DNA from: an uncultured Candidatus Saccharibacteria bacterium
GTDB lineage: Bacteria > Patescibacteriota > Saccharimonadia > Saccharimonadales > Saccharimonadaceae
Length of the DNA stretch: 64,000 nucleotides
Direction: 5' to 3'
NCBI GenBank assembly: GCA_964488555.1
Contig: CAZAUF010000002.1
Coordinates: forward strand, 49,407 to 113,406
The notes under the pieces were generated by a model. That model was not told where the DNA came from. It made no database searches and saw only the letters and a program-made list of their open reading frames with translations. The number at the start of each line of letters is the position of its first letter. Positions within the stretch are counted from its first letter, which is position 1. Positions 27,765 through 49,009 of the stretch are shown one piece after another. The translations under genes and the position numbers were made by a program.

Positions 27765-29342
27765 CTACAACACTGAACGGATCAGTCCGACAAAGAGCGG
27801 ATGCGGACGATTAGGACGAGATTTCAGCTCGGGATGAGCTTGTGTAGCAACAAAATACGGATTATCCGACGCTTCGACGAACTCAACTAGCCGTCCGTCA
27901 GGTGACGTACCGCTAATCGTTATACCTCCCTGCTCTATCGACGCCTTAAACGCTTGATTCACCTCATAGCGGTGACGATGCCGCTCCACAACGTCGGTCG
28001 CGCCGTATGCTTCGGCCGCCTTGGTTCCAGCTTGCAACTGAGCTTCGTAGTTACCGAGGCGTAGCGTCCCGCCGGTGGATTCCTTGCCCTGCTGACCATC
28101 CATGATATAGACCACGTTGTGTGGTGTGTTCGGGTCAAATTCTGTACTATTTGCGTCCGATAGGCCTGCTCGACGGGCAGCCGCGATGACTGCCACCTGC
28201 AGCCCCAGGCATATGCCCAGATACGGCTTGCCGTGCTCCAACGCGTACGAGGCGGCGGCAATCTTGCCCGATACGCCGCGTTCGCCGAATCCACCAGGCA
28301 CCAACAGCGCGTCCACGCTGGCAAAGTCATCCTCTGTCGCTGCTTCGGCATTGATCCACTTGATTTCCACACCTACATCTTCTTGCCAACCAGCCGCTTT
28401 GAGAGCTTCAAGTACAGAGATATATGTGTCTTCGTTGTCCATATATTTCGCGACCATACCCACGCTAACAGTTCGCTCGTGCTGTTTGGTTTGCTTTTCG
28501 ACTATCTCTTTCCACTTGGTCAAATTCGGCTCGTTCTGATTGCCGGTAAATTTTGCCAAAACATCATTGATACCACTGGCAGCGATAGAAAGCGGTACTT
28601 CGAACACTGTCGAGGCATTCGGCAGCAGCACAACCGCCTCTTCGCGAACACCGCTAAACAGACTAATCTTGCGTGCTACACCCGCCGGAGCCGGACTGTC
28701 GGTCCGCACAATGACACTGTCTGGAACGATACCGAACCCGCGCAGGTCGTTGAGTGCGTTTTGAGCCGGTTTCGTCTTGAACTCTTTGCTTGTGCCGATG
28801 AATGGCACGTACACGACATGGACATACAAGCAGTTTTCGCGACCGACCCGCCCTGCAAACTCACGAATCGCTTCGACGAAGCTCAAACCCTCGTAGTCAC
28901 CGACCGTACCACCAATTTCGACGATATGCACATCGGCACCGTCAGCCGCATCCTGAATGGCATCTTGGATAGCTCCAGTCAAATGAGGTACCAACTGGAC
29001 AGTTTTGCCGCCAAACTTTCCCGCTCGCTCATCCGCAATCAATTGTTGCAATAGTCGCCCGCTGAGAGTGGCGTTCTTTTGCGTTAGTTCCAAATCTAAA
29101 AATCGTTCGTAATGACCCAGATCCAAATCTGTTTCGGCACCATCAACGGTCACGAAACACTCACCATGTTCGGCAGGATTTAAAAGCCCCGCATCTACAT
29201 TAAGATACGGGTCGCATTTTTGAATCGAAACTTTTGCACCTTTGGCTTGTAACACCGCACCAATACTTGCCGCGCTGATACCTTTACCGACACCCGACAG
29301 AACACCGCCTGTTACAAAAATAAACTTTTGATTTTTCTCCAT
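27765..29342 (-). CDS. pyrG: CTP synthase
   Basis: KFIFVTGGVLSGVGKG N-terminus and glutaminase GICLGLQ. ATG at 29342 chosen because GGGAGAG lies upstream. Confidence 0.95.
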   Translation of the reverse strand: MEKNQKFIFVTGGVLSGVGKGISAASIGAVLQAKGAKVSIQKCDPYLNVDAGLLNPAEHGECFVTVDGAETDLDLGHYERFLDLELTQKNATLSGRLLQQLIADERAGKFGGKTVQLVPHLTGAIQDAIQDAADGADVHIVEIGGTVGDYEGLSFVEAIREFAGRVGRENCLYVHVVYVPFIGTSKEFKTKPAQNALNDLRGFGIVPDSVIVRTDSPAPAGVARKISLFSGVREEAVVLLPNASTVFEVPLSIAASGINDVLAKFTGNQNEPNLTKWKEIVEKQTKQHERTVSVGMVAKYMDNEDTYISVLEALKAAGWQEDVGVEIKWINAEAATEDDFASVDALLVPGGFGERGVSGKIAAASYALEHGKPYLGICLGLQVAVIAAARRAGLSDANSTEFDPNTPHNVVYIMDGQQGKESTGGTLRLGNYEAQLQAGTKAAEAYGATDVVERHRHRYEVNQAFKASIEQGGITISGTSPDGRLVEFVEASDNPYFVATQAHPELKSRPNRPHPLFVGLIRSVL

Positions 29343-29428
29343 AGGTTTTGTCTCTCCCATGGGAGTTCATTGTATCATCAAGCGTCGTGCTTACGCCAGC
29401 ATCACAGAGGTGAAAAAGTTATAGTATT

Positions 29429-31204
29429 TTAGTGATGCGTTGCGAAATAACGCAGTATATCGATAGTTGCGTTTGGTATGTTTCCAGGTATCGGAATACC
29501 AGGCAAACCGTCAGCCATCGGATATGCTAAGTGGTAACGGTACAGGTCGGGAGCCGCTCGTAGCAAGTCAGACTGACTGATCTCAAAGCCAGCCTTCTGT
29601 GCAGCTTCGTACATACCCATACCACTATGCGCGTATACGTCACTCATGCCTGTATGGAGCTCCATGACGTATTCTGGAGCAGCTGGAGGTACGTCACCGC
29701 CAGCCACTGGCGGACCCTCTCTCAGCGGAGGATCTACATTTGGTGCAGCTGAGGCATCCGTCACCGCATCATGAGACAGCAGTCCCTTTGAACCATCGAA
29801 CCAGCCGCCTGGAAGCGTGTGTGTACCAGCACCAATAGCACCAGCCACAGCATAGCTACCGAGCGTGTAGTTTCTCGTCTTCGATTGTGCTTTACTGATA
29901 CGATTTTCGAAATCACTGCGAATTCGTGCGTGCATGTATTCAAATGCTTCATCAGTACTTGCATATTCTTGCATCAACTCGTCTGCATCAAAATTCAGCA
30001 TATTGGCACCGTCAGCACGCTGCTGGCGTTGGCGTGCGTTGAAACTTGCTGCCATCAGAGTACCTGAAGTAGCAAACGTGCCGGCACCACCAGTAAAGAA
30101 TCCTGCAACCGCTGATGCACCAACGCCTAGGATAACCTTGGGAACGACGTGCAAGCGGCCATATTTTTCGAGCAGCTTACCGAATTTGGTGTTGGAATTT
30201 CTGTAACTCTCCAGTATGGCAAGGTCAAGCTTCTTGGCTTCGTCGACGGTGTGTTCAGCGATTTTTCTAATCTTGTCAGTCATGGTCAAGGTCGCATCAC
30301 GTGCGATATCTGGGTTTAGTAAGCGGAAAACATCCAGAGAAGCGGCGTGGTACTTTGCGTATAACGCCTTGTTCTTGGGGCTATAACGAGCGTCACCCTT
30401 ATAGGCATCGATACCCCACATACGCTTCTCTCGTTTGGCGTTCAGCGTAGCCAGTTCTTGGCGCAGCTCATCCAATTTCTCGTTGGCTGCATCCAACATT
30501 TCTTGTTGTTCCGGCGTGCGAGCGGTCTCAGTCGTCGCTTCGGTACTTGCTGGCGTGGATCGCTCTTTTGACAGCATGCCGTATGTCATCGCAACGTAAC
30601 GCGTACGCATCATTTGCTCGAATAAGCTCAGTTTCGCGGCTTTCGCCTCATCGGATTTATCGTCCTTCTCAAATGCCGTCACGAAAGTGGCCAACGCTTC
30701 ACCAGTCGGTTGCGGCAGTGTACTGTCGGGTTGCGCATACTCTGATGTGTATTTGACCGCACGAAGGGGCAAATCATAATTTTTGCGCATTGGCTCAGGA
30801 ACGCTCTCGCGAGCTTGAGTGATACTTTGGAGTAACGTCGAGGCAGCTTCTGTCACCTGATCGTCGTTCATATCGAGTGCTGCCTGCTTGTTGTTGAAAT
30901 CAATCTGATTTTGGATATACTCCAGTACACCCAACTGATAGCCATCCAGTTTTTTATTCTGGTCGTTATCAAAATCTTCGCCGAAGCTGTCGAGCATACG
31001 CGCGTACACCGCGCTATCTGTATTACTTTCGGTGTCATTGAGCCACTCAGACGGGTCGAAACTCGAACGAGGGTTGTTGCGAAGTGCAAACTCCAGTTCT
31101 ATGAGTTTTTCACGAAACATCGCAACAGTCGGCATGTTGTCGTGGCCGCGTTCCGGAGAGGCGGTCGTCACTGTTTCGACAGATGGGGAAAGATTCTTGT
31201 TCAT
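29429..31204 (-). CDS. hypothetical membrane protein (591 aa)
   Basis: Long helical/acidic N-terminal part and two Gly/Ala-rich hydrophobic segments (VILGVGASAVAGFFTGGAG; LGSYAVAGAIGAG). No recognisable domain. Confidence 0.5.
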   Translation of the reverse strand: MNKNLSPSVETVTTASPERGHDNMPTVAMFREKLIELEFALRNNPRSSFDPSEWLNDTESNTDSAVYARMLDSFGEDFDNDQNKKLDGYQLGVLEYIQNQIDFNNKQAALDMNDDQVTEAASTLLQSITQARESVPEPMRKNYDLPLRAVKYTSEYAQPDSTLPQPTGEALATFVTAFEKDDKSDEAKAAKLSLFEQMMRTRYVAMTYGMLSKERSTPASTEATTETARTPEQQEMLDAANEKLDELRQELATLNAKREKRMWGIDAYKGDARYSPKNKALYAKYHAASLDVFRLLNPDIARDATLTMTDKIRKIAEHTVDEAKKLDLAILESYRNSNTKFGKLLEKYGRLHVVPKVILGVGASAVAGFFTGGAGTFATSGTLMAASFNARQRQQRADGANMLNFDADELMQEYASTDEAFEYMHARIRSDFENRISKAQSKTRNYTLGSYAVAGAIGAGTHTLPGGWFDGSKGLLSHDAVTDASAAPNVDPPLREGPPVAGGDVPPAAPEYVMELHTGMSDVYAHSGMGMYEAAQKAGFEISQSDLLRAAPDLYRYHLAYPMADGLPGIPIPGNIPNATIDILRYFATHH

Positions 31205-34908: not shown

Positions 34909-35895
34909 CTAGTCCTTCTTCGCGCCGTTTACTTCGTAACTGGTATTTGTCGCCTCAAAGAAATTCACGAGTTCAAGCGTATCGTTTGCCGTCGCCATCC
35001 ATTTGGCTGGGTTGCTGACGTTGTAGTGCGCATCAAAACCGAGCTCTTCTAGGCGTCGATCCGCCAAGTACTTCACATACTGGTTGATGTAGTCCGCGTT
35101 CAGACCCAAGATACCGTTTGGCAGCAGATCCTTGTTGTACTGCTCCTCCATTTCCACACCGTCGAGAATCATCTGCTTGATTTCGGCAGCAAACTCTTCA
35201 GTCTGCAGGTCTTCGTTTTCCTCAAGTACCGTTAGGATGAGATTGATACCAAATTTTAGGTGCAGTGATTCATCACGAACCACCCAGTTGATAAGGTATG
35301 CGAAATTACGCAGCAGGTTGCGCTGGCGGAAGCTCAGTGCCACCATGAAACCGCTGTAGAACCAGATACCTTCGAGGATGATGTTGTAAGCGACCAGGTT
35401 GCGAATGAAGTCCTTCTTGCCTTCGGTCGTCGTGATGTCCAGCGTGTCTTCGGTCATACGCTTGATAAACTTCGTCTCGAACTCTTCCTTGCGTGCCATT
35501 GATTCCACTTCCACGTGCGCAGCGTACGACGCCTCGCGGTCGATTGGAAATGTTTCGAGCACGTACTCAAATGCCATGCAGTGATTGGCTTCTTCCCACA
35601 TCTGCTTAGCGAGGTACAGGTGCGCCTCTGCCGCGTTGACGTATGGGTAAACACCGAAAGCCAGTGCCTTGTTCACGAGCAATTCATTCGGGTTGAAGTA
35701 GCTCATCAGGAACGTCACTGCGTGGCGTTCCTCGTCACTCATTTTTTTCCAGTCCGCCAGGTCTTGGCCGAGCTGGATTTCGTTTGGAAACCACGTGTTG
35801 GCGACCGCTTGATTGTAGAGGTCGTATGCCCACTGGTATTTAACTGGTTTGAGAAGTAATCCGTCTTGGATACCTGTTCCGAGAATGCCTGCCAT
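34909..35895 (-). CDS. nrdB: ribonucleotide reductase small subunit, class Ic-like ligand set
   Basis: Metal-site motifs are NPNELLV, EEANHCMAF, ILEGIWFYSGF and RDESLH. Glu replaces the first Asp, and Phe sits at the radical-Tyr position (H+4). Confidence 0.9.
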   Translation of the reverse strand: MAGILGTGIQDGLLLKPVKYQWAYDLYNQAVANTWFPNEIQLGQDLADWKKMSDEERHAVTFLMSYFNPNELLVNKALAFGVYPYVNAAEAHLYLAKQMWEEANHCMAFEYVLETFPIDREASYAAHVEVESMARKEEFETKFIKRMTEDTLDITTTEGKKDFIRNLVAYNIILEGIWFYSGFMVALSFRQRNLLRNFAYLINWVVRDESLHLKFGINLILTVLEENEDLQTEEFAAEIKQMILDGVEMEEQYNKDLLPNGILGLNADYINQYVKYLADRRLEELGFDAHYNVSNPAKWMATANDTLELVNFFEATNTSYEVNGAKKD

Positions 35896-35956
35896 GGTAA
35901 TTCGCAAATCCTTTCCTTAATATTTCAAACAAACGTGTCATATCTATCGTAACCCT

Positions 35957-36130
35957 TTACTCGCAACCGTCGCAAATCGTCAGCATGGCTGGATCAAGCG
36001 GTGCAGCGATAGAACCGCTTTTTTGCGCTTCTTCCTGTGCCTGCTCCTGCGCAGCTTTCATAGCCTTGTCGATCGCGTCCAATTTCTCTTGCAGAGTCAT
36101 GTTGTCGTCGATGATTTGTGATGCGTTCAT
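35957..36130 (-). CDS. unannotated 57-aa ORF between nrdA and nrdB ending in CDGCE
   Basis: Read by hand from the sequence because it is below the ORF-track cutoff: MNASQIIDDNMTLQEKLDAIDKAMKAAQEQAQEEAQKSGSIAAPLDPAMLTICDGCE. AAGGGG lies 11 nt upstream of the ATG. Confidence 0.45.
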   Translation of the reverse strand: MNASQIIDDNMTLQEKLDAIDKAMKAAQEQAQEEAQKSGSIAAPLDPAMLTICDGCE

Positions 36131-36244
36131 AGTATTATTTTCCCCTTATACCCTTTTCTTTTCAGTTATGTTTTTCATGTGTTCTTTTCGTTCAGAGCGT
36201 ACCCATAGGCTATGTCTCCACCCTTACATCCCATGAAACAGGTT

Positions 36245-38653
36245 TCATGGGGACCCCGTTGCTTGTTTTTTAGCAAATCCGAACCCAGTCTTACGCGGAC
36301 CGCCGCCCGCCAGTGCCTCGGCTTTGTTTACTTTCACTGTACTTTGCTCATTGGTATGGCGCGGTTTGACGTGCAGATAGTAAGTCGTTTTGAGACCCTT
36401 TTTCCAGGCGGCCGCGTAAATCTTTTCGTACTCGTCGATGTCTCGTGTCTCCAGATACATATTGCGGCTGATCGCTTGGTCGACCCACTTTTGCGCGCGG
36501 GCGGCAACTTCTATAAATGCGTACGGGCTTAGCTGGAAACTCGTCTTGTATACATCTTTAATGTTCTGCGGAATCGCTTCGATCTGCTGGATATCGCCCT
36601 GGTAGCGCAAGACTTCGTCTTTTACCTGCTCCCAGAGACCCAGTCGCTTCAAGTCGTTGATCATATTCACATTGACCTCGAGGAACTTGCCGTTCAGTGT
36701 GGCGCGGCTAAATATCTGGGCAAATTGCGGATCGATGCCTGGCGTCGTACCACTGACATGCGCATTGTTTGCAGTCGGTGCGATAGCCATCAGAGTCGCG
36801 TTGCGCATGCCTTTTTTCACCTTGGCGCGCAGCTTTTCCCAGTCCAGACGTTTCTTGCGTGTGATATCGAGTTTGATCTTGCGATCAAGCTCTAGTTGAT
36901 CGAGCGTGTCGATCGGCAAGATGCCCTTGCTCCAACCACTGCCCTTGAATGTCGGGTAGCTTCCGCGCTCCTTAGCAAGATCCGCACTGGCATCAATGGC
37001 GTGGTAGCTGATAAATTCAGTCAACTGATCCATCAAATCGTACGCCTCTTCGGACTCATAGCTATAACCAAGCTTTTCGATGACATCGGTAAAGCCCATG
37101 ATACCAAGACCCACGGCGCGGTTTTGCTGATTGCTGTGCATCGCCTGTGGAATCGGCGTGTTGGTCAGATCAACCAGGTTATCGAGCTGGCGGATCGATA
37201 CGCGGACAGCACGCTCCAGACGATCCCAGTCCCATGTCTTGTCCTCGCGCAAGTGAACCGACAAGTTGATGCTCGAGAGGTTACAGACAGCCGTGTTGTC
37301 TTTGTCTTGTGGCAGCGTGATTTCCGTACACAGATTACTGTGGTGAATCGTGCCGGTATTATTGTTGAGCGCGCGCACATTCATAGTGTCTTTCCAGGTG
37401 AGCCATGGATGGCTGGTCGCCTGAAGGATAGTCAGAATTTGACGGTATTGCTCACGAGCGTTCACGACGGCAAAGTCTCGCATTTTGCCTGCCTTGGCCA
37501 GCTTGACGTATTCGTTGTAACGCTTGGCAAACGCATCACCATACAGTTCGATCAAATCAGCTGTCTCGGCCGGATCAAACAAATACCAATCCTGCTCCTT
37601 CTGCACGCGACGCATAAACTCATCACTCAGGATGACCGCCGTGTTGGCAATTCGCGTACGAAGGTATGGGTCACCAGAGTTTTGCTTGAGGTCCAAAAAC
37701 TGTGGGAAATTCAGGTGCCAGTTTTCCATGAAGACAGCGGCCGCGCCTTGCTTTTTGCCCTTGCGGCTGACCGCGAACAGTGCCGTGTCGATCATCTTGA
37801 TAAATGGAATCGGACCGGTTGATTCGCTATTGGTCGTCTTGACCGGACTGCCAGCAGCACGAAGTTTGGTGATGCCGATACCGATACCGCCGGTACCCTT
37901 GGCAATCCACATAGTGTCACGCACGCCGCGTGCAATCGCTTCCATGTCATCCTCTATGTCAAACAAGAAACAGTTGCTCAGCTGTGGGAATGAACCGCCA
38001 GCGTTGATACGAGTCGAACCTGCCGGGTTGGCGTCGAGCTTGCTTATGTACTCGTAAAACTCCAACGCCGTAGCGGTTGGGTCCTTTTCGAGAAGGCTCA
38101 GCCCCATGGCGATACGCATAGCAGTAAACTGCGGAACTTCGATGGAATCACCGCTGTTTTGGCGCAAACTATAGCGGTTGCGGCTGGTGATAACGCCGAG
38201 ATAACGCATCAGACCGTCCCGCGACGGGTCCAGTGCTGCCGCCAGCTTCTTGAGATCAAATGTCTTGCTGGTCATGCGCTTGTCGAGCAGACCCAGAGCG
38301 ATACCATTTTTCAGATACTCTGGGAACTTTTTGGCGTGCAACGCCTTTAGCTCTTCTTGGCTTGAGTACGCACCTAGAACCTTCTTATATATATTCTTTA
38401 GCAGCAGATTTGCCGCGATCTTATCAAAGTCAGGATCGTCTTTGACGTTTTGCAGCGCGGTGTGTATCAGTGCTTCGTCCAACTGCTCGGTGGTGATACC
38501 GTCAAACAGCGTCAGTTGCAGCTCGGTCGCAACCTGTACGACTTTGCTAATCTGGTCAGGTAGCCCCTCACTGGCTTCGACCAGGGCGAGATTGATTTTG
38601 TTGGCGTCGAATGGTTCGCGGGTGCCATCGCGTTTAACCACATTGATGCTCAT
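36245..38653 (-). CDS. nrdA: ribonucleoside-diphosphate reductase large subunit
   Basis: N-terminal ATP-cone (VVKRDGTREPFD), SNCFL, NLCTEI and AVCNLSSINL. No Cys occurs in the last ~130 residues. Confidence 0.95.
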   Translation of the reverse strand: MSINVVKRDGTREPFDANKINLALVEASEGLPDQISKVVQVATELQLTLFDGITTEQLDEALIHTALQNVKDDPDFDKIAANLLLKNIYKKVLGAYSSQEELKALHAKKFPEYLKNGIALGLLDKRMTSKTFDLKKLAAALDPSRDGLMRYLGVITSRNRYSLRQNSGDSIEVPQFTAMRIAMGLSLLEKDPTATALEFYEYISKLDANPAGSTRINAGGSFPQLSNCFLFDIEDDMEAIARGVRDTMWIAKGTGGIGIGITKLRAAGSPVKTTNSESTGPIPFIKMIDTALFAVSRKGKKQGAAAVFMENWHLNFPQFLDLKQNSGDPYLRTRIANTAVILSDEFMRRVQKEQDWYLFDPAETADLIELYGDAFAKRYNEYVKLAKAGKMRDFAVVNAREQYRQILTILQATSHPWLTWKDTMNVRALNNNTGTIHHSNLCTEITLPQDKDNTAVCNLSSINLSVHLREDKTWDWDRLERAVRVSIRQLDNLVDLTNTPIPQAMHSNQQNRAVGLGIMGFTDVIEKLGYSYESEEAYDLMDQLTEFISYHAIDASADLAKERGSYPTFKGSGWSKGILPIDTLDQLELDRKIKLDITRKKRLDWEKLRAKVKKGMRNATLMAIAPTANNAHVSGTTPGIDPQFAQIFSRATLNGKFLEVNVNMINDLKRLGLWEQVKDEVLRYQGDIQQIEAIPQNIKDVYKTSFQLSPYAFIEVAARAQKWVDQAISRNMYLETRDIDEYEKIYAAAWKKGLKTTYYLHVKPRHTNEQSTVKVNKAEALAGGGPRKTGFGFAKKQATGSP

Positions 38654-38814: not shown

Positions 38815-38862
38815 ACTACATATGTAGTGTCTATATAGCACTATAGACCCTATATATGTGGT
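38815..38862. promoter_or_regulatory. NrdR-box-like tandem palindromes upstream of nrdA
   Basis: ACTACATATGTAGTGT (38815-38830) and ACCCTATATATGTGGT (38847-38862). Each matches ACACTATATATAGTGT at 12/16, and their centres are 32 bp apart. Confidence 0.5.
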
Positions 38863-39079: not shown

Positions 39080-39451
39080 ATGCGCTTCATCCTCAACCTG
39101 GTCATCGCAACAGCGTTGCTACTCCTCTTTAATGCCTTTGGCTGGCTAACGCTCAGTCACGACGGCAAGCAAGTGGAATTCGATGATCTCACCTGGCCAA
39201 TCTTTGGCAGCGTCTTGCTGGTGGCAGTCGTCATGTGGCTGGCCGGCATCGTCGTCGGTTTGCTCTACGGCGTAAGTGTGCTCCTGACATTCGGTTTGAT
39301 GCTGCTTGCCTACCCCTTCATCGGGTGGTTCGTACTCAAGGCGGCCGAGCACTTCATGTCGGACACGTTGACGCTGCACGGTTTCTGGATTTCGGTGCTT
39401 TGTGGTTGGCTGCTGCTCATCGTAAAGATCCCATCAGGAAGCCGCAACTAG
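39080..39451 (+). CDS. DUF360 / YvlD-like (phage-holin-4 superfamily) membrane protein
   Basis: 123 aa with 3-4 TM helices. The C-terminal HGFWISVLCGWLLLIV resembles the GFW...lilsiv end of YvlD-like proteins. AAGGAG RBS present. Confidence 0.45.
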   Translation: MRFILNLVIATALLLLFNAFGWLTLSHDGKQVEFDDLTWPIFGSVLLVAVVMWLAGIVVGLLYGVSVLLTFGLMLLAYPFIGWFVLKAAEHFMSDTLTLHGFWISVLCGWLLLIVKIPSGSRN

Positions 39452-39510: not shown

Positions 39511-39598
39511 CAAAAGTTCTTCTTGCCATTCATTCCATAGCACATTGAAATTATATACAATTATTCAGCAGCATAAATAGCGTATGAATTACAAATAA

Positions 39599-39614
39599 AC
39601 ACTATATATAGCGT
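39599..39614. promoter_or_regulatory. single NrdR-box-like palindrome upstream of a secreted-peptide gene
   Basis: ACACTATATATAGCGT matches the 16-bp consensus at 15/16. It lies just upstream of a putative -35 TTGGTA (39619-24) and -10 TATAAT (39643-48). Confidence 0.45.
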
Positions 39615-39691
39615 TTTTTTGGTATTTTTGAATCAAATTTGTTATAATGGTTATGCTCCTTAAAAACAGGGTGAGCAATAGGGGGTTATAT

Positions 39692-40018
39692 ATGCGTATA
39701 AATGTCAAGAGGCATATATTTAAAATTGTGGGTGGTTTGTTGGCTATTCCACTTGTAGGCGGAATGCTTTTAGCACCCACGGCAAGTGCAGCCGTGTGGG
39801 ACTGTGTCACAAAATTCGAACCGATAGGACCCACAGGATACTGTGGATCTGGCGACTCAACACACTTCAAAGCAAACATCATGTGTATCAATATTTTTAA
39901 TCAAACCCATGTCATTTCAGGACCTTGGCAGCCAGTAGGAGGAAATACTCCATCCGTCATCGGCAGCTGTCCACCTTTCGAGAGTTATCACGGTCCTATC
40001 TATATGACCGGAAACTAA
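39692..40018 (+). CDS. small secreted cysteine-containing protein
   Basis: ATG at 39692 follows AGGGGG. Signal peptide ...LLAPTASA/AV. The mature ~78 aa carry four Cys. The gene has its own promoter and terminator. Confidence 0.55.
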   Translation: MRINVKRHIFKIVGGLLAIPLVGGMLLAPTASAAVWDCVTKFEPIGPTGYCGSGDSTHFKANIMCINIFNQTHVISGPWQPVGGNTPSVIGSCPPFESYHGPIYMTGN

Positions 40019-42934: not shown

Positions 42935-44407
42935 TTACGCTCCATGCAGACAGCCGTACTGTAAACGTTCCGATGGGGCAAAATTGTCGGTATAGAGTGG
43001 CGAACCGGATAGTTTCAATTGCTTTGATTGAGGCCATTGTATCGACTGACGGCTATAGGTAGCGACAATATTCATATGTTTTTCGTCTTCCGTGTCCTCT
43101 GATTTGTATTGGACATAGCCAAAATGCGCTCTATACGGTGCGTCGAGTGCCTCTAGTAATTGCCTACACTGACCCTTGAATCCAGCCATCAGATTGCTCA
43201 CGACTATACCGGTCGGCTTTACTATGCGTGCCAGACTTTGCCCATACTCTCGCGTCATAAATGTAAACGGCACCTCTATATCGCCATACACGTCCACAAG
43301 TACCACATCATAACGCTTATGAGTTTGGTTGATATACGTGCGTGCGTCTTGAAACACGAGGTTGACGTTTGGCGGATCGTCGTAATGAAAATGTCGTCTC
43401 GCAATTTCTGCAAGCTGCGGATCAATTTCTACGACATCAATCGTCGTATCCGGGTATTTGTGTGCCAGATACCGCGGAACCGTAAAGACGCCGCCCCCCA
43501 GCATAAGTATTCGGTCTCGCTCGGGTGCGTACTCTACCACTTCAGCCATTTTCTGGGTGTACCAGTACACCAGCTCGTCGCTGTTACTCATATTCACCCC
43601 TGATTGCACGCCGCGTGGTCCAGTAAGCAGCATGCGCACGCCGTCGCGCTCGACGATTTCGTAATGCGCGGTGGGCGTATCGATAGATATACTGTGCGCG
43701 TTTGGCGTGAGCAGTGATAGACCTGCCGGTAGCAACACGGCCACACTGAGACCGATCCGTTGCCATACCTGTACGCGCGGTGCCATCAGCCAACTGATAG
43801 CCATCACGCTCACAGCAATGATGACAAGAGTTTCGCGTGATCCTATATAACTAAATAAGATAAAGCCTGTGATAAACGTTCCCGTGATACTACCAAGGGC
43901 ATTGAATGTACTCAGCCCGGCAATTGAACGACCTGTCATCTTGAGCGAATGGACTTTTAGCTTAGCCAGATAAGGGCTGACAACACCGAGCAGAAAGCTT
44001 GCTGGAGCAAATAGAAGCAGCGATGTCACGACACCTTGTATGCGCGCATCTGCGAACATGATCGTGACCCATGGCATCACAGCCTCATACGACACCATAG
44101 TTCCCACGACCGCAACAGCAATAAGCAGCAGAAACCGCGCTACATCTATGGCATATCCTCTGCGATCCGCCACTTTGCCGCCGACCCAGTAGCCCAAGCT
44201 AAGTGCGGCGATGATAACCCCGATGACGCTCGTCCATACATACATAGAGCTACCAATGCCAGGAGCAAGTATGCGCGCACCCGCTAATTCATATGCCATC
44301 AACGCAAAGCCGCTCGCAAACGCCACGACCTCGAGCTTGCCTATGCCTGTGCGCAATCTCTTCACTACTATTAGTGTAGCAGGCTGCTTGTCGCTCCGTG
44401 AGTTCAA
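42935..44407 (-). CDS. spermidine-synthase-like methyltransferase-fold domain fused to an N-terminal polytopic membrane domain
   Basis: About 210 aa with multiple TM helices, then [14 protein letters not shown]...IDVVEIDP...[11 protein letters not shown] (aminopropyltransferase-like). Confidence 0.7.
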
Positions 44408-44420
44408 ATCCTGCCGTCAA

Positions 44421-44451
44421 GAAAAAAGACGTCCAAATGGACGTCATTTTT
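44421..44451 (-). terminator. terminator downstream of tRNA-Ser
   Basis: Minus strand reads GACGTCC-attt-GGACGTC followed by TTTTTTC. Confidence 0.6.
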
Positions 44452-44453
44452 CT

Positions 44454-44543
44454 TGGCGGAGAGAACAGGATTCGAACCTGCGGTACGATTGCTCGCACAC
44501 ACGCTTTCCAAGCGTGCTCCTTCAACCACTCGGACACCTCTCC
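44454..44543 (-). tRNA. tRNA-Ser(GGA), CCA encoded
   Basis: Folded by hand: acceptor GGAGAGG/TCTCTCC, anticodon arm CACGC-TTGGAAA-GCGTG, long variable arm, T-arm GCAGG-TTCGAAT-CCTGT. TATAAT lies about 10 nt upstream. Confidence 0.88.
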
Positions 44544-44589
44544 GTATATGTAAATTATACCCTAGCCGATTCTCTATCGACATATACGG

Positions 44590-44721
44590 CACGCTTGGTC
44601 CAGGCGTGGTCACGTTCCGCGACCCCTCGAGTCAGTCGGATAAACAAGTTTATCCGTGACATCGCCTTGCGAACTGCCACTGGCAGTTCTCACCTTCAAC
44701 CACTCGGACACCTCTCCGTAT
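44590..44721 (-). pseudogene. partial, decayed duplicate of the tRNA-Ser 5' half
   Basis: A 29-nt exact direct repeat (44693-44721 = 44519-44547) covers tRNA positions 1-25. An anticodon-arm-like hairpin CACGC-CTGGACCAA-GCGTG sits at 44590-44608. No T-arm or 3' acceptor strand is present. Confidence 0.5.
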
Positions 44722-44825
44722 CGGCGTTGTCGCTTTCATCTATTCTAACAGATAGGGCCTGAGTTGTGATTATCACACGTGCTTACGGTTGCCCAGAGTG
44801 TTGACCGGCCTCTATAATATAGGCA

Positions 44826-45638: not shown

Positions 45639-46873
45639 TGCCCCTACTCCTCAAAAACCACATCGAAAACGCCGTGGAGTCGCTTCGAAGTAATCGCCTG
45701 CGTACTGCACTGACCGTCCTTGGTGTCACTATCGGTATTGCGAGCATCACGGTCATCCTGTCACTGAGCGTCGGTGCTGCCCGCATCGTTGCCAGTCAGA
45801 TAAACGAGATTGGTAGCGGGCTCGTCGTGGTGCGCTCCGGATCACCCCATCAGAACGTGCGCCTCGACAACCTGACCGCCACTCTAGCGGGCAGTCAAAC
45901 CGCAAGCAGCCTCACAGAAAACGACCTCGACAACATACAGGCACTTCCGGGAGTCAAAGCAGCCGCACCACTCATGCTCATTGGTGGTGGCGTAGCTGCA
46001 GACGACAGCAAGCCAAACGATGTCGCTATCGTCGCCACCACTCCATCACTGCCCGAGGTAACCCCTCTTCCACTCAGCAACGGTCAATTCATAGACACGG
46101 TCACCCGGCGTGACACAGCCGTCATCGGTGCGCAGCTATCGGTAGATTTGTTTGGCACTGAGCAGTCCATCGGTCGCACATTCGACACGCACGGCATGAC
46201 ATTTACCGTCATCGGCGTGCTCAAGCGGCTCAACGATCCTGTCAACTACAACAACGTCGACTTCGACCGGGCTGCCATCATCAGCCTGGAAAGCGGCAAA
46301 ACTTTCCATCAAAACATCGCTGTTTTTCAGCAAATAAACATCCGAGCCGAGTCACAGGACAAGCTGGCCAGCGTCATGTCACAGACAGACAAAATCCTAG
46401 AGAGCAACCACAAAGGCGAGAAAGACTATGTGATCGTCAGCGGTGAATCCCTCGCGCAACCTACCAATGAACTGTTTACAGCAGTAGCTGCCACACTCAC
46501 GACCGTCGCTGGTATATCGCTGATAGTCGGTGGCATAGGTATCATGAACATTCTGCTGGTAGGCGTGGCTGAGCGCACGCGCGAAATCGGTATTCGCAAA
46601 GCTCTCGGCGCATCCAACGCGCACATCGTCTGGCAATTTCTCATAGAATCGCTCGTCATGAGCCTGACAGGCGGTATCATCGGCTACGTCGCTGGTTATC
46701 TGATGGCATTTTCTATAGCACGCAGCTTCCTGCCGTTTGACCCGGCCTTCACCTGGGGTATTGCCGGAGCCGCACTGGGCACATCACTCGTGGTCGGCCT
46801 GCTCTTCGGCCTCTACCCCGCCATCCGCGCCGCCCGCAAAGATCCCATAGAAGCACTGCGTCAGTATCATTAA
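45638..46873 (+). CDS. ABC transporter permease (MacB_PCD + FtsX)
   Basis: 411 aa with a typical MacB-like layout. The start overlaps the ATPase stop. Confidence 0.85.
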   Translation: MPLLLKNHIENAVESLRSNRLRTALTVLGVTIGIASITVILSLSVGAARIVASQINEIGSGLVVVRSGSPHQNVRLDNLTATLAGSQTASSLTENDLDNIQALPGVKAAAPLMLIGGGVAADDSKPNDVAIVATTPSLPEVTPLPLSNGQFIDTVTRRDTAVIGAQLSVDLFGTEQSIGRTFDTHGMTFTVIGVLKRLNDPVNYNNVDFDRAAIISLESGKTFHQNIAVFQQINIRAESQDKLASVMSQTDKILESNHKGEKDYVIVSGESLAQPTNELFTAVAATLTTVAGISLIVGGIGIMNILLVGVAERTREIGIRKALGASNAHIVWQFLIESLVMSLTGGIIGYVAGYLMAFSIARSFLPFDPAFTWGIAGAALGTSLVVGLLFGLYPAIRAARKDPIEALRQYH

Positions 46874-46968
46874 ATTGGTGTAGAATAAACAACAAATTTG
46901 TGTATCTAGACAGATTGGCACACAAACAAAAAACGTCCAATTTCTAGAGAGCGTCAAAACCACCTAGG

Positions 46969-47016
46969 ACACTGTATATAGTGTCTATTGTCTTAATTAT
47001 ACACCATATGTATGAT
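46969..47016. promoter_or_regulatory. tandem NrdR-box-like palindromes overlapping a putative promoter
   Basis: ACACTGTATATAGTGT (46969-84, 15/16) and ACACCATATGTATGAT (47001-16, 11/16), centres 32 bp apart. They flank or overlap -35 TTGTCT (46988-93) and -10 TATGAT (47011-16). Confidence 0.5.
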
Positions 47017-47043
47017 GAAGGTGTCATTTAAAAAGGGGGTGGT

Positions 47044-48546
47044 ATGAGTGACATTTTCATGAACAAATTCATCAAAAAGAAAAAGGGAGCAAAACCAAAA
47101 ACAGGGCTACTCCGGCGACTGAGTCTATGGCTACTAGCAATAGTAGGGTCACTAGGCTTCTCGTTGTCGCCAATGAGCAGCGTCTTCGCCGCAAGTATTT
47201 ATGATGATGTAGTGCATCCTGTTTCTATTTTGACACTAACAAAAATAGACGGATCAGATAGCGAAGCTCTTACCGACCCCATTATAAGTTTCATGCGGGA
47301 TTACTGTGCTACAGAGATTTACAATGCATTCGAATCCACAATCAAAGACGAAGATGGAAATTGGGCAATAGCACAAATAAACAACGCAGGTATAGCAAGC
47401 GTAGCGGTTTACTGGACAACCACACCCAACGCGTCAGCATCCTTCATAAGTGTTAATGGGCTTACGGTTCCTGTCGAAGGACAGGCCATCCTAGGGTTTG
47501 ACTCCAGCGACTCACGAACGTGTGCGGGCGGTATCGTAAATACCAATGGAATACTTGCAACCGGTTGTTCACCATCTCCATGCACTCCTCTCTTTGCACC
47601 GTTTCTCTCTACATATCCTCTTACTTATCCTACCGGATATGATGGCGAGGAGGTCCCAGCAGGGTTGGGAGATATAGACGGTGACGGCTTAACTCTTGCG
47701 CAAGAAATAACACAAGGAACATCTGACGGCGACCCCGACACAGACGGCGATGCGTTGGATGATGATATCGAATCGATTTGGAATCCAGATAGAGACGACA
47801 TTTTCTGCGGCACAAGTTGCGCATACCCTAATCCGTTAGTATGGGATCTCTACGTGGAGATTGACTGGTTGAGTGATGGTACAACATCTTACGAACCAAC
47901 ATACTCTCAGCTTGCATCGGTCAAAAATAAGTTTGCTTACCTCAACATCCTTTTTCATGCAGATACCGGTTTGTTCGGTGGTGGTAACGAATTGACTGTT
48001 GCGAATTTCAACAATCCGCTCGACGTGCGTGATGAATTTTATAGTTTCAAGTGGGGCTATAATACATCGGACCCTGCAAACTTTAACGAAAATCGTTATC
48101 ATATATGGCACTATATGATTTCAGGGTACAATTTTGATGACGGCACTCTTGGTTCTACTACTTCATCTGGTAAGGCAGAAGGAGGAGGTGACGATACGTT
48201 CATTTCGTACGGGTACTTAAAGGATAATCAAAGCGGTTTTGGATATGCAAATTTTGACGATGCAGTGACCGGAACAATCATTCACGAGTTGGGCCATAAT
48301 CTATGCCTCACGAATACATCATATTTCGGGCAAGATTCGTCCTGTTTATTTAGTGGTATAGACGATTACTCTGCATCTTCAAATTATCAGAGCGCGATGA
48401 ACTACCACTACCAGTTTACCAACAACTATTCGTATTCTGACGGAACACATGGTACTGGTGATCACAATGACATAAATGCAATCGTCATAGGTATAGATGA
48501 CTTTTTAGACGATGACGACTCTTCTCTGGGAGGTCCAAGTGTCTAA
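47044..48546 (+). CDS. secreted zincin-like (HExxH) protein with Asp-rich Ca-binding-type repeats
   Basis: Signal peptide ending SVFA/AS. DIDGDGL...DGDPDTDGDALDDD repeats, HELGHNLCL, and a SAMNY Met-turn-like motif. Confidence 0.55.
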   Translation: MSDIFMNKFIKKKKGAKPKTGLLRRLSLWLLAIVGSLGFSLSPMSSVFAASIYDDVVHPVSILTLTKIDGSDSEALTDPIISFMRDYCATEIYNAFESTIKDEDGNWAIAQINNAGIASVAVYWTTTPNASASFISVNGLTVPVEGQAILGFDSSDSRTCAGGIVNTNGILATGCSPSPCTPLFAPFLSTYPLTYPTGYDGEEVPAGLGDIDGDGLTLAQEITQGTSDGDPDTDGDALDDDIESIWNPDRDDIFCGTSCAYPNPLVWDLYVEIDWLSDGTTSYEPTYSQLASVKNKFAYLNILFHADTGLFGGGNELTVANFNNPLDVRDEFYSFKWGYNTSDPANFNENRYHIWHYMISGYNFDDGTLGSTTSSGKAEGGGDDTFISYGYLKDNQSGFGYANFDDAVTGTIIHELGHNLCLTNTSYFGQDSSCLFSGIDDYSASSNYQSAMNYHYQFTNNYSYSDGTHGTGDHNDINAIVIGIDDFLDDDDSSLGGPSV

Positions 48547-48601
48547 TGAGGTACCGGTTCGCACAAGCCCCTGCGGCAGAAACTTGTGTTACTATAAGCT
48601 T

Positions 48602-49009
48602 ATGGTTAAAGTAATTCTTTCATCCCTAGAGAGAACGGCTACTCTACATAGAGCGACCTCACTTGCGACAATTCTTTCCTTGATTTTTTGCGTAACTATA
48701 CCGCCTCTGGGAGTAAGTGCGGTTTTTAAGCCAGGAGAAAACAACAATGTTAATCCTGAAGAAATAAAAAGGCATAAAAGCCCTGATGACAAAAGAACTT
48801 TAAGTTCGCCCACTGCCAATAATAATTCTTCTGCAAACACCACAAGCAATGACTCTTCAATACATGAAGAGGTTGAAAATAATAATACGAAAAATGCTAC
48901 GAATAACGTAAAAACAACCAACGACATGAACCTCTGGCTCATCAGTGGAGGTGTGGCGTTGGTTCTTGTGATAGCCAGTGCTATCGTGTGGCGACTGAAG
49001 AAGCGGTAG
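48602..49009 (+). CDS. hypothetical Asn/Ser-rich protein with N-terminal signal-like segment and C-terminal TM anchor
   Basis: Internal ATG at 48602. C-terminal LWLISGGVALVLVIASAIVWRLKKR. Visibly AT-rich coding sequence. Confidence 0.4.
   Translation: MVKVILSSLERTATLHRATSLATILSLIFCVTIPPLGVSAVFKPGENNNVNPEEIKRHKSPDDKRTLSSPTANNNSSANTTSNDSSIHEEVENNNTKNATNNVKTTNDMNLWLISGGVALVLVIASAIVWRLKKR

Follow-up and report, generated by a model that had tools for sequence, protein, structure and literature searches.

The subject of this study is a pair of 16-bp boxes of the type bound by NrdR, the repressor of ribonucleotide reductase (RNR) genes, found upstream of a gene for a protein predicted to be exported in Candidatus Saccharibacteria (TM7, Patescibacteria). 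The window, by which we mean the whole 64-kb stretch of DNA analysed, originates from this lineage; close homologues of its NrdA and of the exported protein all come from metagenome-assembled genomes of Saccharibacteria/Saccharimonadales. The boxes lie in the spacer between ftsX and the gene of interest, hereafter the target gene, within the order macB-ftsX-[target]-small open reading frame (ORF)-pgi, and the identical locus is present on two Logan contigs (SRR7082968 and SRR7082982). The same window holds pyrG and the nrdAB genes (34909-38653), which are the canonical NrdR target of the source genome. Table 1 collects the coordinates.

Table 1. Positions of the boxes, the associated genes and the reference operator in the window.
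Feature	Positions	Strand	Basis or remarks
NrdR box 1, ACACTGTATATAGTGT	46969-46984	.	One mismatch to the consensus ACACWATATATWGTGT; canonical palindromic
16-bp linker containing the predicted -35, TTGTCT (46988-46993)	46985-47000	+	Promoter scan
NrdR box 2, ACACCATATGTATGAT	47001-47016	.	11/16 to the consensus; T13/G14 variant
Short 5' leader, ribosome-binding site AAGGGGG at 47033-47039	47017-47043	+	Read from the sequence
Target gene, 500 aa, predicted exported, zincin-like	47044-48546	+	ORF; AAGGGGG ribosome-binding site upstream, ATG at 47044
ORF for a small membrane-anchored Asn-rich protein, overlapping the 3' end of the target gene	48512-49009	+	ORF list
Proximal nrdAB NrdR-box pair (38815-38830 and 38847-38862, 32 bp apart)	38815-38862	-	Position weight matrix; reference operator, same genome
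Distal nrdAB-region NrdR box, ACGCTATATATGGTGT, partner degenerate in the source genome	38937-38952	-	Consensus and position weight matrix
nrdA	36245-38653	-	Class I ribonucleotide reductase; Pfam Ribonuc_red_lgC, ATP-cone
nrdB	34909-35907	-	Class I ribonucleotide reductase; Pfam Ribonuc_red_sm
pyrG (CTP synthase)	27765-29360	-	In the window

The box pair and its predicted promoter

An initial annotation, made from the sequence alone, had placed a 15/16 match to the NrdR-box consensus at box 1 and a weaker copy, matching at 11 of 16 positions, 32 bp away. A recount confirmed both boxes, including the coordinates and the single mismatch of the first. Start to start, the boxes are 32 bp apart and thus separated by a 16-bp linker, so that the tandem spacing claimed for them fits the published rule of 15-16 bp (PMC13584703). 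The pair had further been proposed to bracket a promoter. When positions 46700-47200 were scanned, a single sigma-70-like site was returned, with the identical -35 (TTGTCT, 46988-46993), 17-bp spacer and -10 (TATGAT, 47011-47016). The downstream end of box 1 is 3 bp from the -35, and box 2 extends over the 3' part of the spacer and the entire -10. The boxes therefore flank the -35 and cover the -10 of a promoter that is a consensus prediction and is conserved in orthologues.

For scoring, we used an independent palindromic 16-bp position weight matrix (PWM) built from 226 boxes in 72 non-identical nrdA-upstream regions. The source of these regions was a set of 80 metagenomic nrdA loci from related Saccharibacteria (NrdA identity 75-91%), which did not include the target locus. 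Two boxes of at least 8 bits each, 30-33 bp apart, were counted as a tandem pair. Box 1 scored 16.8 bits and box 2 scored 14.1 bits. Two tandem pairs were present in the window, the proximal nrdAB pair (38815/38847) and the pair upstream of the target gene, each with its boxes 32 bp apart, against a mean of 0.005 pairs in 200 dinucleotide shuffles of the window, none of which produced a pair with both boxes at 14 bits or more. Consensus matches with three mismatches or fewer numbered four against 0.51 expected, a count reached in none of 100 shuffles. In the intergenic DNA of the window (6.0 kb, 43% GC), sites of at least 10 bits occurred only in the nrdA region, at 39599 and in the target spacer, and Markov resamples of this DNA contained 0.039 sites of at least 14 bits, with a pair in 1 of 1000. 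No tandem pair was present in the negative control, a set of unrelated loci of archaea and bacteria (491 kb). The observed pairs thus stand far above the shuffled rate. The initial annotation had itself allowed that equally good 16-mers might be common in AT-rich spacers; they are not, since shuffles, intergenic resamples and control loci yield almost no pairs. These results confirm that the box pair is far beyond chance.

Conservation of the pair and distribution of the motif

Box 1 recurs at about -75 of the orthologous genes in loci L003 (48% protein identity), L005 (37%), L163 and L164 (53%), and L008 (35%). It is ACACTATATATAGTGC in L003 and a perfect ACACTATATATAGTGT in L005. Across the six sequences C4, T9, T11 and G13 are invariant, and position 6, which is G in the source strain, is A in four of the five orthologues and C in L008. 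For box 2, L163 and L164 have the identical sequence, L003 has ACACTATATGTATCAT, and L008 has a recognisable copy. The 16-bp linker spacing is also found in L003, L163 and L164. When all six sequences were compared, pairwise column identity was 0.85 in box 1, 0.77 in box 2, 0.65 in the linker and 0.50 in the rest of the spacer. A -35 of the form TTGTYT, TTGATT or TTGTTA is kept in L003, L005, L008, L163 and L164, and also in L004, where the promoter is retained and the boxes are absent; the leader GGTGTCATT...AAAGGGRGG is likewise conserved in the orthologues.

The order macB-ftsX-[target] is common to the window, L003, L005, L163 and L164; the first three of these also have pgi downstream. 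Because the FtsX proteins of these macB-ftsX-[target] loci are only 63-78% identical, the loci represent separate species and not strains. The conservation upstream of orthologues that had been named as a check on the boxes is thus seen in L003, L005, L008, L163 and L164, with a decayed box 2 in L005, and the pair is under purifying selection in syntenic orthologues.

These data bear on the idea that the boxes have no regulatory role at present, being either an AT-rich palindrome that arose by chance or a neutral remnant of an nrdA-type promoter that was copied, an idea that we consider highly improbable. Chance is excluded by the shuffles and the control loci. Promoter copying would be compatible with the about 41 of 50 positions, linker included, that L151 nrdA and the L003 target share when aligned by eye, and loss of the boxes in L004 and decay of box 2 in L005 would suit a relic. 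In species with FtsX proteins this far diverged, however, a neutral remnant would not have remained the part of the spacer that is conserved best.

Another conserved element of the spacer is the 13-mer TAGAATAAACAAC at 46881-46893 (+), 88 nt upstream of box 1 and held at a fixed distance of 86-88 nt in the orthologues; in L008 a diverged version stands 81 nt upstream. In many Saccharibacteria this 13-mer also makes up the linker that separates the two pyrG boxes. It may serve as a second -10-like element, or promoter copying may have left it as a trace, and its membership in the operator is uncertain. A distal box pair around it (46866-46881 and 46897-46912, 31 bp apart) was rejected on PWM scores of -12.8 and -13.8.

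The same part of the spacer bears on whether box 1 might act as an RNA hairpin, either terminating the macB-ftsX operon or attenuating a leader transcribed from a promoter near 46881. A terminator scan does flag 46967-46986, with a T-rich tail after it, and 88 nt upstream stands a conserved, -10-like TAGAAT whose distance is fixed. Even so, we regard such a role as extremely improbable. The hairpin is weak (-9.1 kcal/mol, z = -1.95), and L003 has a separate strong terminator upstream yet retains the boxes; on these two grounds box 1 was rejected as an intrinsic terminator. RNAalifold returned no conserved leader structure (-0.38 kcal/mol), and a candidate leader hairpin with an ACAGAT loop (46898-46929), by eye compensatory in four of six orthologues, was discarded on that same value and the lack of convincing covariation. 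A hairpin would leave box 2 and the 32-bp phasing unexplained, and at nrdA the same boxes sit between -35 and -10, where they are not transcribed.

The motif class had also been reported upstream of nrdA in the window, and both the consensus and the PWM scans bore this out. In about 70 related loci the nrdA-upstream layout consists of TTGAAA (-35), box P1 (ACCAyATATmTAGGGT), a 16-bp linker holding the -10, and box P2, ACACTACATATGTAGT. Another 90-110 bp or so upstream follows a distal box, ACGCTATATATAGCGT, whose weaker partner is 31 bp off. The target boxes belong to the same motif class and have the same tandem geometry as this nrdAB operator of their own lineage. Box P2 has a 7-bp C-G geometry that is near-invariant across the lineage. 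This geometry, present at 38815-38830 of the window and about 150 bp upstream of nrdA in L083-L162, is the one that abolished binding of E. coli NrdR in an nrdEF mutant (PMC13584703). Half-sites may be tolerated somewhat differently by the NrdR of Saccharibacteria.

In 1.39 Mb of Saccharibacteria DNA, tandem pairs stand upstream of nrdA (at nearly all loci), of pyrG (at about 25 loci) and of members of the target family, and almost nowhere else; only two isolated pairs, L131:6822-7060 and L157:18708-18987, fall outside these three classes. The regulator of the RNR promoter would therefore have a tiny and specific regulon that includes the target gene. Among L083-L162, pyrG pairs are found for example at L112:19701-19749 and L158:15552-15600, and in some cases a divergent type IV pilin-like gene shares the pair. 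The region upstream of pyrG in the window (29361-29480) holds degenerate boxes only, and its operator looks decayed. In the 80 related loci around nrdA, the target gene shows no synteny with nrdA.

Several further observations were made at these sites. One of the two isolated pairs lies ahead of a unit of ~150 nt that ends in a terminator before an argS-like ORF, and the other, a weaker pair, is followed at a contig end by an ORF for an Nramp-like transporter. The pyrG leaders (L112:19750-19800, other pyrG loci, and about 29361-29400 of the window, minus strand) contain an inverted repeat, CCCATGG...CCATGGG, over the ribosome-binding site and start codon, which may form a hairpin acting in translation or attenuation. 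The strongest single box in the window is ACACTATATATAGCGT (39599-39614, 23.5 bits), with a weak partner at 39568-39583. It stands upstream of an ORF for a small Cys-rich signal-peptide protein (39647/39692-40018), ahead of an extended -10, TGTTATAAT, and lies upstream of the core promoter and not over it. No homologues of the small ORFs 39080-39451 and 39647-40018 were found among the related loci searched. Between a spermidine-synthase-like gene and macB, positions 44400-44760 of the window carry spurious ORFs with GFEPA-type translations, which suggests at least one tRNA gene.

The target gene and its product

The gene downstream of the box pair is not an RNR gene; it encodes a zincin-like protein that is predicted to be exported. 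Its N-terminus has a Lys-rich n-region, a hydrophobic helix (residues 20-41) and a VFA/AS cleavage site with an invariant A49, features that suggest a signal peptide. A beta-rich N-terminal domain is followed by TSP3-type DxDxDG calcium-binding repeats and by a C-terminal HELGH domain; Pfam TSP3_bac is matched in 15 of 25 family members. The family is confined mainly to Saccharibacteria; archaea and myxobacteria have distant relatives that contain TSP3. The overlapping ORF at the 3' end of the target gene has weak homologues directly after the target gene in L003 and L166, and a gene is called at the equivalent position in L001 and L002; this ORF is probably an operon partner, co-transcribed with the target gene.

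The product had initially been called metalloprotease-like, a description that stands in part. H414, E415, G417 and H418 of the HEXXH motif are invariant in 25 homologues and lie in a helix (404-420) of an AlphaFold2 (AF2) model with a predicted local distance difference test score (pLDDT) of 82.9. Searched against the PDB, the family profile gave weak matches to the zinc-site region of adamalysin/serralysin (E-values 0.0035-0.1), confined to the zinc-site helix, and sub-threshold Pfam matches were obtained to M57, M35, M12B and M66. These data uphold a zincin-like character. Assignment to a peptidase family did not stand: the product had no Pfam match above threshold and reached no curated peptidase family, and a Foldseek search of the PDB with the full-length AF2 model gave zero matches at E<=0.001. 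The product thus resembles the zincins (metzincins M10/M12, aspzincin M35 and M57) in its invariant HExxH, H414/E415/H418, set in a long helix. Unlike the metzincins, it has no third His/Asp at the metzincin position, that is, at +6 after the second His (HELGHNLCLTN). With regard to a third zinc ligand and Met-turn (metzincin) or GTxDxxYG (aspzincin), the near-invariant D440 and M452 are candidates only. Because the third ligand of metzincins is missing, the evidence carries no further than an 'exported zincin-like hydrolase'.

NrdR control and its relation to known systems

The requirements of NrdR binding were defined in a mutational study of 2026. Binding needs two boxes with a linker of 15-16 bp (14-17 tolerated), the sequence of which is irrelevant. 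Each box is a partially palindromic 16-mer with conserved C4, A6, A8, T9, T11 and G13, of which C4 and G13 are crucial, and at least 63% AT is required between these two for DNA bendability. A 9-bp C-G distance (G13T,T14G) in one box retained high affinity in vitro, and G6 in both boxes lowered affinity 4-10 fold in vitro (PMC13584703). Box 1 carries five of the six signature positions (C4, A8, T9, T11 and G13, with G at position 6), and so does box 2, with T13 and G14; the AT content between positions 4 and 13 is 7/8 (88%) in box 1 and 6/8 (75%) in box 2. As judged from its sequence, the pair satisfies the published in vitro binding rules, and box 2 has exactly the tolerated T13/G14 geometry.

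The NrdR protein combines a Zn-ribbon (PF22811) with an ATP-cone (PF03477), and the proteins of E. coli and S. coelicolor are able to bind heterologous sites. Searches for the regulator itself with a regular expression, with tblastn using E. coli and B. subtilis NrdR, and with an NrdR hidden Markov model (HMM) detected no nrdR in the window or in the 1.39 Mb of related Saccharibacteria loci. The matches consisted solely of the NrdA ATP-cone and a 33-aa alternate-frame stretch at 42948-43046 (minus strand). The latter resembled the C-terminal ATP-cone of NrdR (E=0.01) and was rejected as a chance match, being out of frame inside the spermidine-synthase-like gene and interrupted by stops. A search for homologues of B. 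subtilis NrdR returned Bacillaceae only, and an exhaustive NrdR profile search gave 150 representatives, the sole label among 10 being Parcubacteria. The related loci cover about 2% of each genome, and the failure to find nrdR in them therefore says little. NrdR is present in other Patescibacteria, in an nrdR-nrdDG locus of the candidate phyla radiation (CPR; L170) and as homologues labelled Falkowbacteria and Patescibacteria. That the target clade encodes NrdR is very probable, because nrdAB carries a conserved NrdR-type double operator. The L170 contig is Falkowbacteria-like and filed as viral in IMG/VR; in its nrdR-nrdD-nrdG locus, an NrdR-type pair consisting of ACCACATATGGTGGTA, 15 bp and GCACAAGATATGGTAT lies upstream of nrdR (L170:5850-5910).

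The empty searches for nrdR could also mean that a conserved operator bound by some other regulator co-controls nrdAB, pyrG and the target gene in Saccharibacteria, and the 7-bp C-G geometry of the P2 box, near-invariant although it abolished E. coli NrdR binding in one mutant, hints at another recognition mode. We nevertheless find this unlikely. The box length, the C4/A6/A8/T9/T11/G13 positions, the linker of 15-16 bp, the tandem layout and the location at RNR promoters make up the universal NrdR signature, and NrdR occurs in 77% of bacterial genomes (PMC13584703) as well as in the other Patescibacteria named above, while the small fraction of each genome covered by the related loci deprives the missing nrdR of most of its force.

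We judge it likely that the two boxes are a working NrdR-type operator on the promoter of the gene for the exported zincin-like protein. Several points weigh against this. The promoter is predicted by consensus only. The source strain has G6 in box 1, with the reservation that the 4-10 fold loss in vitro refers to G6 in both boxes. Box 2 has decayed in L005, and of about 14 target-family members examined six carry the boxes, with eight more distant members (L004, L009/L165, L014, L166, L179, L181, L182 and L183) lacking them; from this absence and the decay in L005 it follows that the link is limited to one orthologous clade and can be lost. No nrdR was detected in the loci searched, neither homologue nor profile searches recovered an NrdR labelled Saccharibacteria, and we found no publication joining NrdR with Saccharibacteria, Patescibacteria or TM7. 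Finally, NrdR, which is being explored as an antibacterial target, is generally described as an RNR-specific repressor.

We infer that the source genome encodes an NrdR that would bind the target boxes and repress the gene, the product of which would act outside the cell on substrates of the host or the environment. With box 1 adjoining the -35 and box 2 lying over the -10, a bound repressor would exclude RNA polymerase. When deoxyribonucleoside triphosphates (dNTPs) are scarce relative to ATP, NrdR would shift to ATP-only oligomers and the DNA would be released; the target gene would then be transcribed alongside nrdAB and, in many relatives, pyrG. Because Saccharibacteria rely on hosts for their nucleotides, co-induction of an exported hydrolase with the genes of dNTP supply is plausible. 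Taken together, the sequence data point to a lineage-specific expansion of the NrdR regulon onto a non-RNR gene for an exported protein.

An operator bound by NrdR might instead serve mainly another purpose, such as activation or the regulation of a transcript that runs antisense or lies upstream, and not repression of 47044-48546. Activation by NrdR through one box is known for topA of Pseudomonas aeruginosa (PMC4409342), and the strong box at 39599 of the window lies upstream of the core promoter and not over it. We consider such a role very unlikely, since the target boxes flank the -35 and cover the -10 of the sole good promoter in the spacer, the classical repressor geometry of RNR promoters, and the window's ORF list contains no ORF diverging from this spacer.

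With considerably less confidence, we suggest as a possibility that NrdR in Saccharibacteria governs a small nucleotide-status regulon in which the dATP/ATP ratio would control RNR, CTP synthase and, in one clade, the exported zincin-like hydrolase with its membrane partner. In this way an episymbiont without de novo nucleotide synthesis might respond to a shortage of DNA precursors by turning on a secreted factor aimed at the host or the environment. A link to host-directed secretion is thus conceivable, and should the host be what the product acts on, the dNTP status of the symbiont would be tied to host exploitation through the operator. Control of a secreted factor by nucleotide supply in tiny symbiotic bacteria is suggested by the presence of this operator on the promoter of an exported-protein gene.

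The pair would rank among the first concrete links from a transcription factor to its target in Saccharibacteria and the wider CPR, where gene regulation is almost unknown. In the literature on NrdR we found no prior regulatory study of this lineage and no precedent for control of an exported protein. The target is both unusual and conserved, and the mechanism as such is a conventional one.

Like the NrdR operators on the RNR promoters of E. coli (nrdAB, nrdHIEF and nrdDG), Streptomyces coelicolor (nrdAB and nrdRJ) and Listeria monocytogenes (nrdAB), the target operator consists of two 16-bp boxes with a linker of 15-16 bp and overlaps the core promoter, here a predicted one. Its box 2 shares the T13/G14 geometry with box 2 of S. 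coelicolor nrdAB, and the two pairs of Saccharibacteria nrdAB, about 90-110 bp apart, recall those of L. monocytogenes nrdAB (113 bp). Unlike all these operators, it belongs to a gene outside RNR and nucleotide metabolism, with an exported zincin-like product. The non-RNR targets known for NrdR are genes of DNA metabolism, such as P. aeruginosa topA (PMC4409342); by analogy, a site upstream of RNR genes would be the usual location of NrdR boxes and not a mechanistic requirement. In contrast to topA, with its single box and activation, the target gene has a full tandem pair on the predicted core promoter of a secreted-protein gene. The closest parallel within the lineage is provided by the pyrG pairs, which match the same PWM with the same phasing of 31-33 bp and, as predicted operators, show the Saccharibacteria regulon to extend beyond RNR. 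Membership of pyrG in such a regulon is metabolically obvious, because pyrG is a nucleotide-synthesis gene, whereas the target gene has no evident nucleotide function. A conserved tandem operator on a secreted-protein gene, together with the pyrG pairs, would mean that the NrdR regulon can be rewired in lineages with reduced genomes, and challenges the label 'RNR-specific'.

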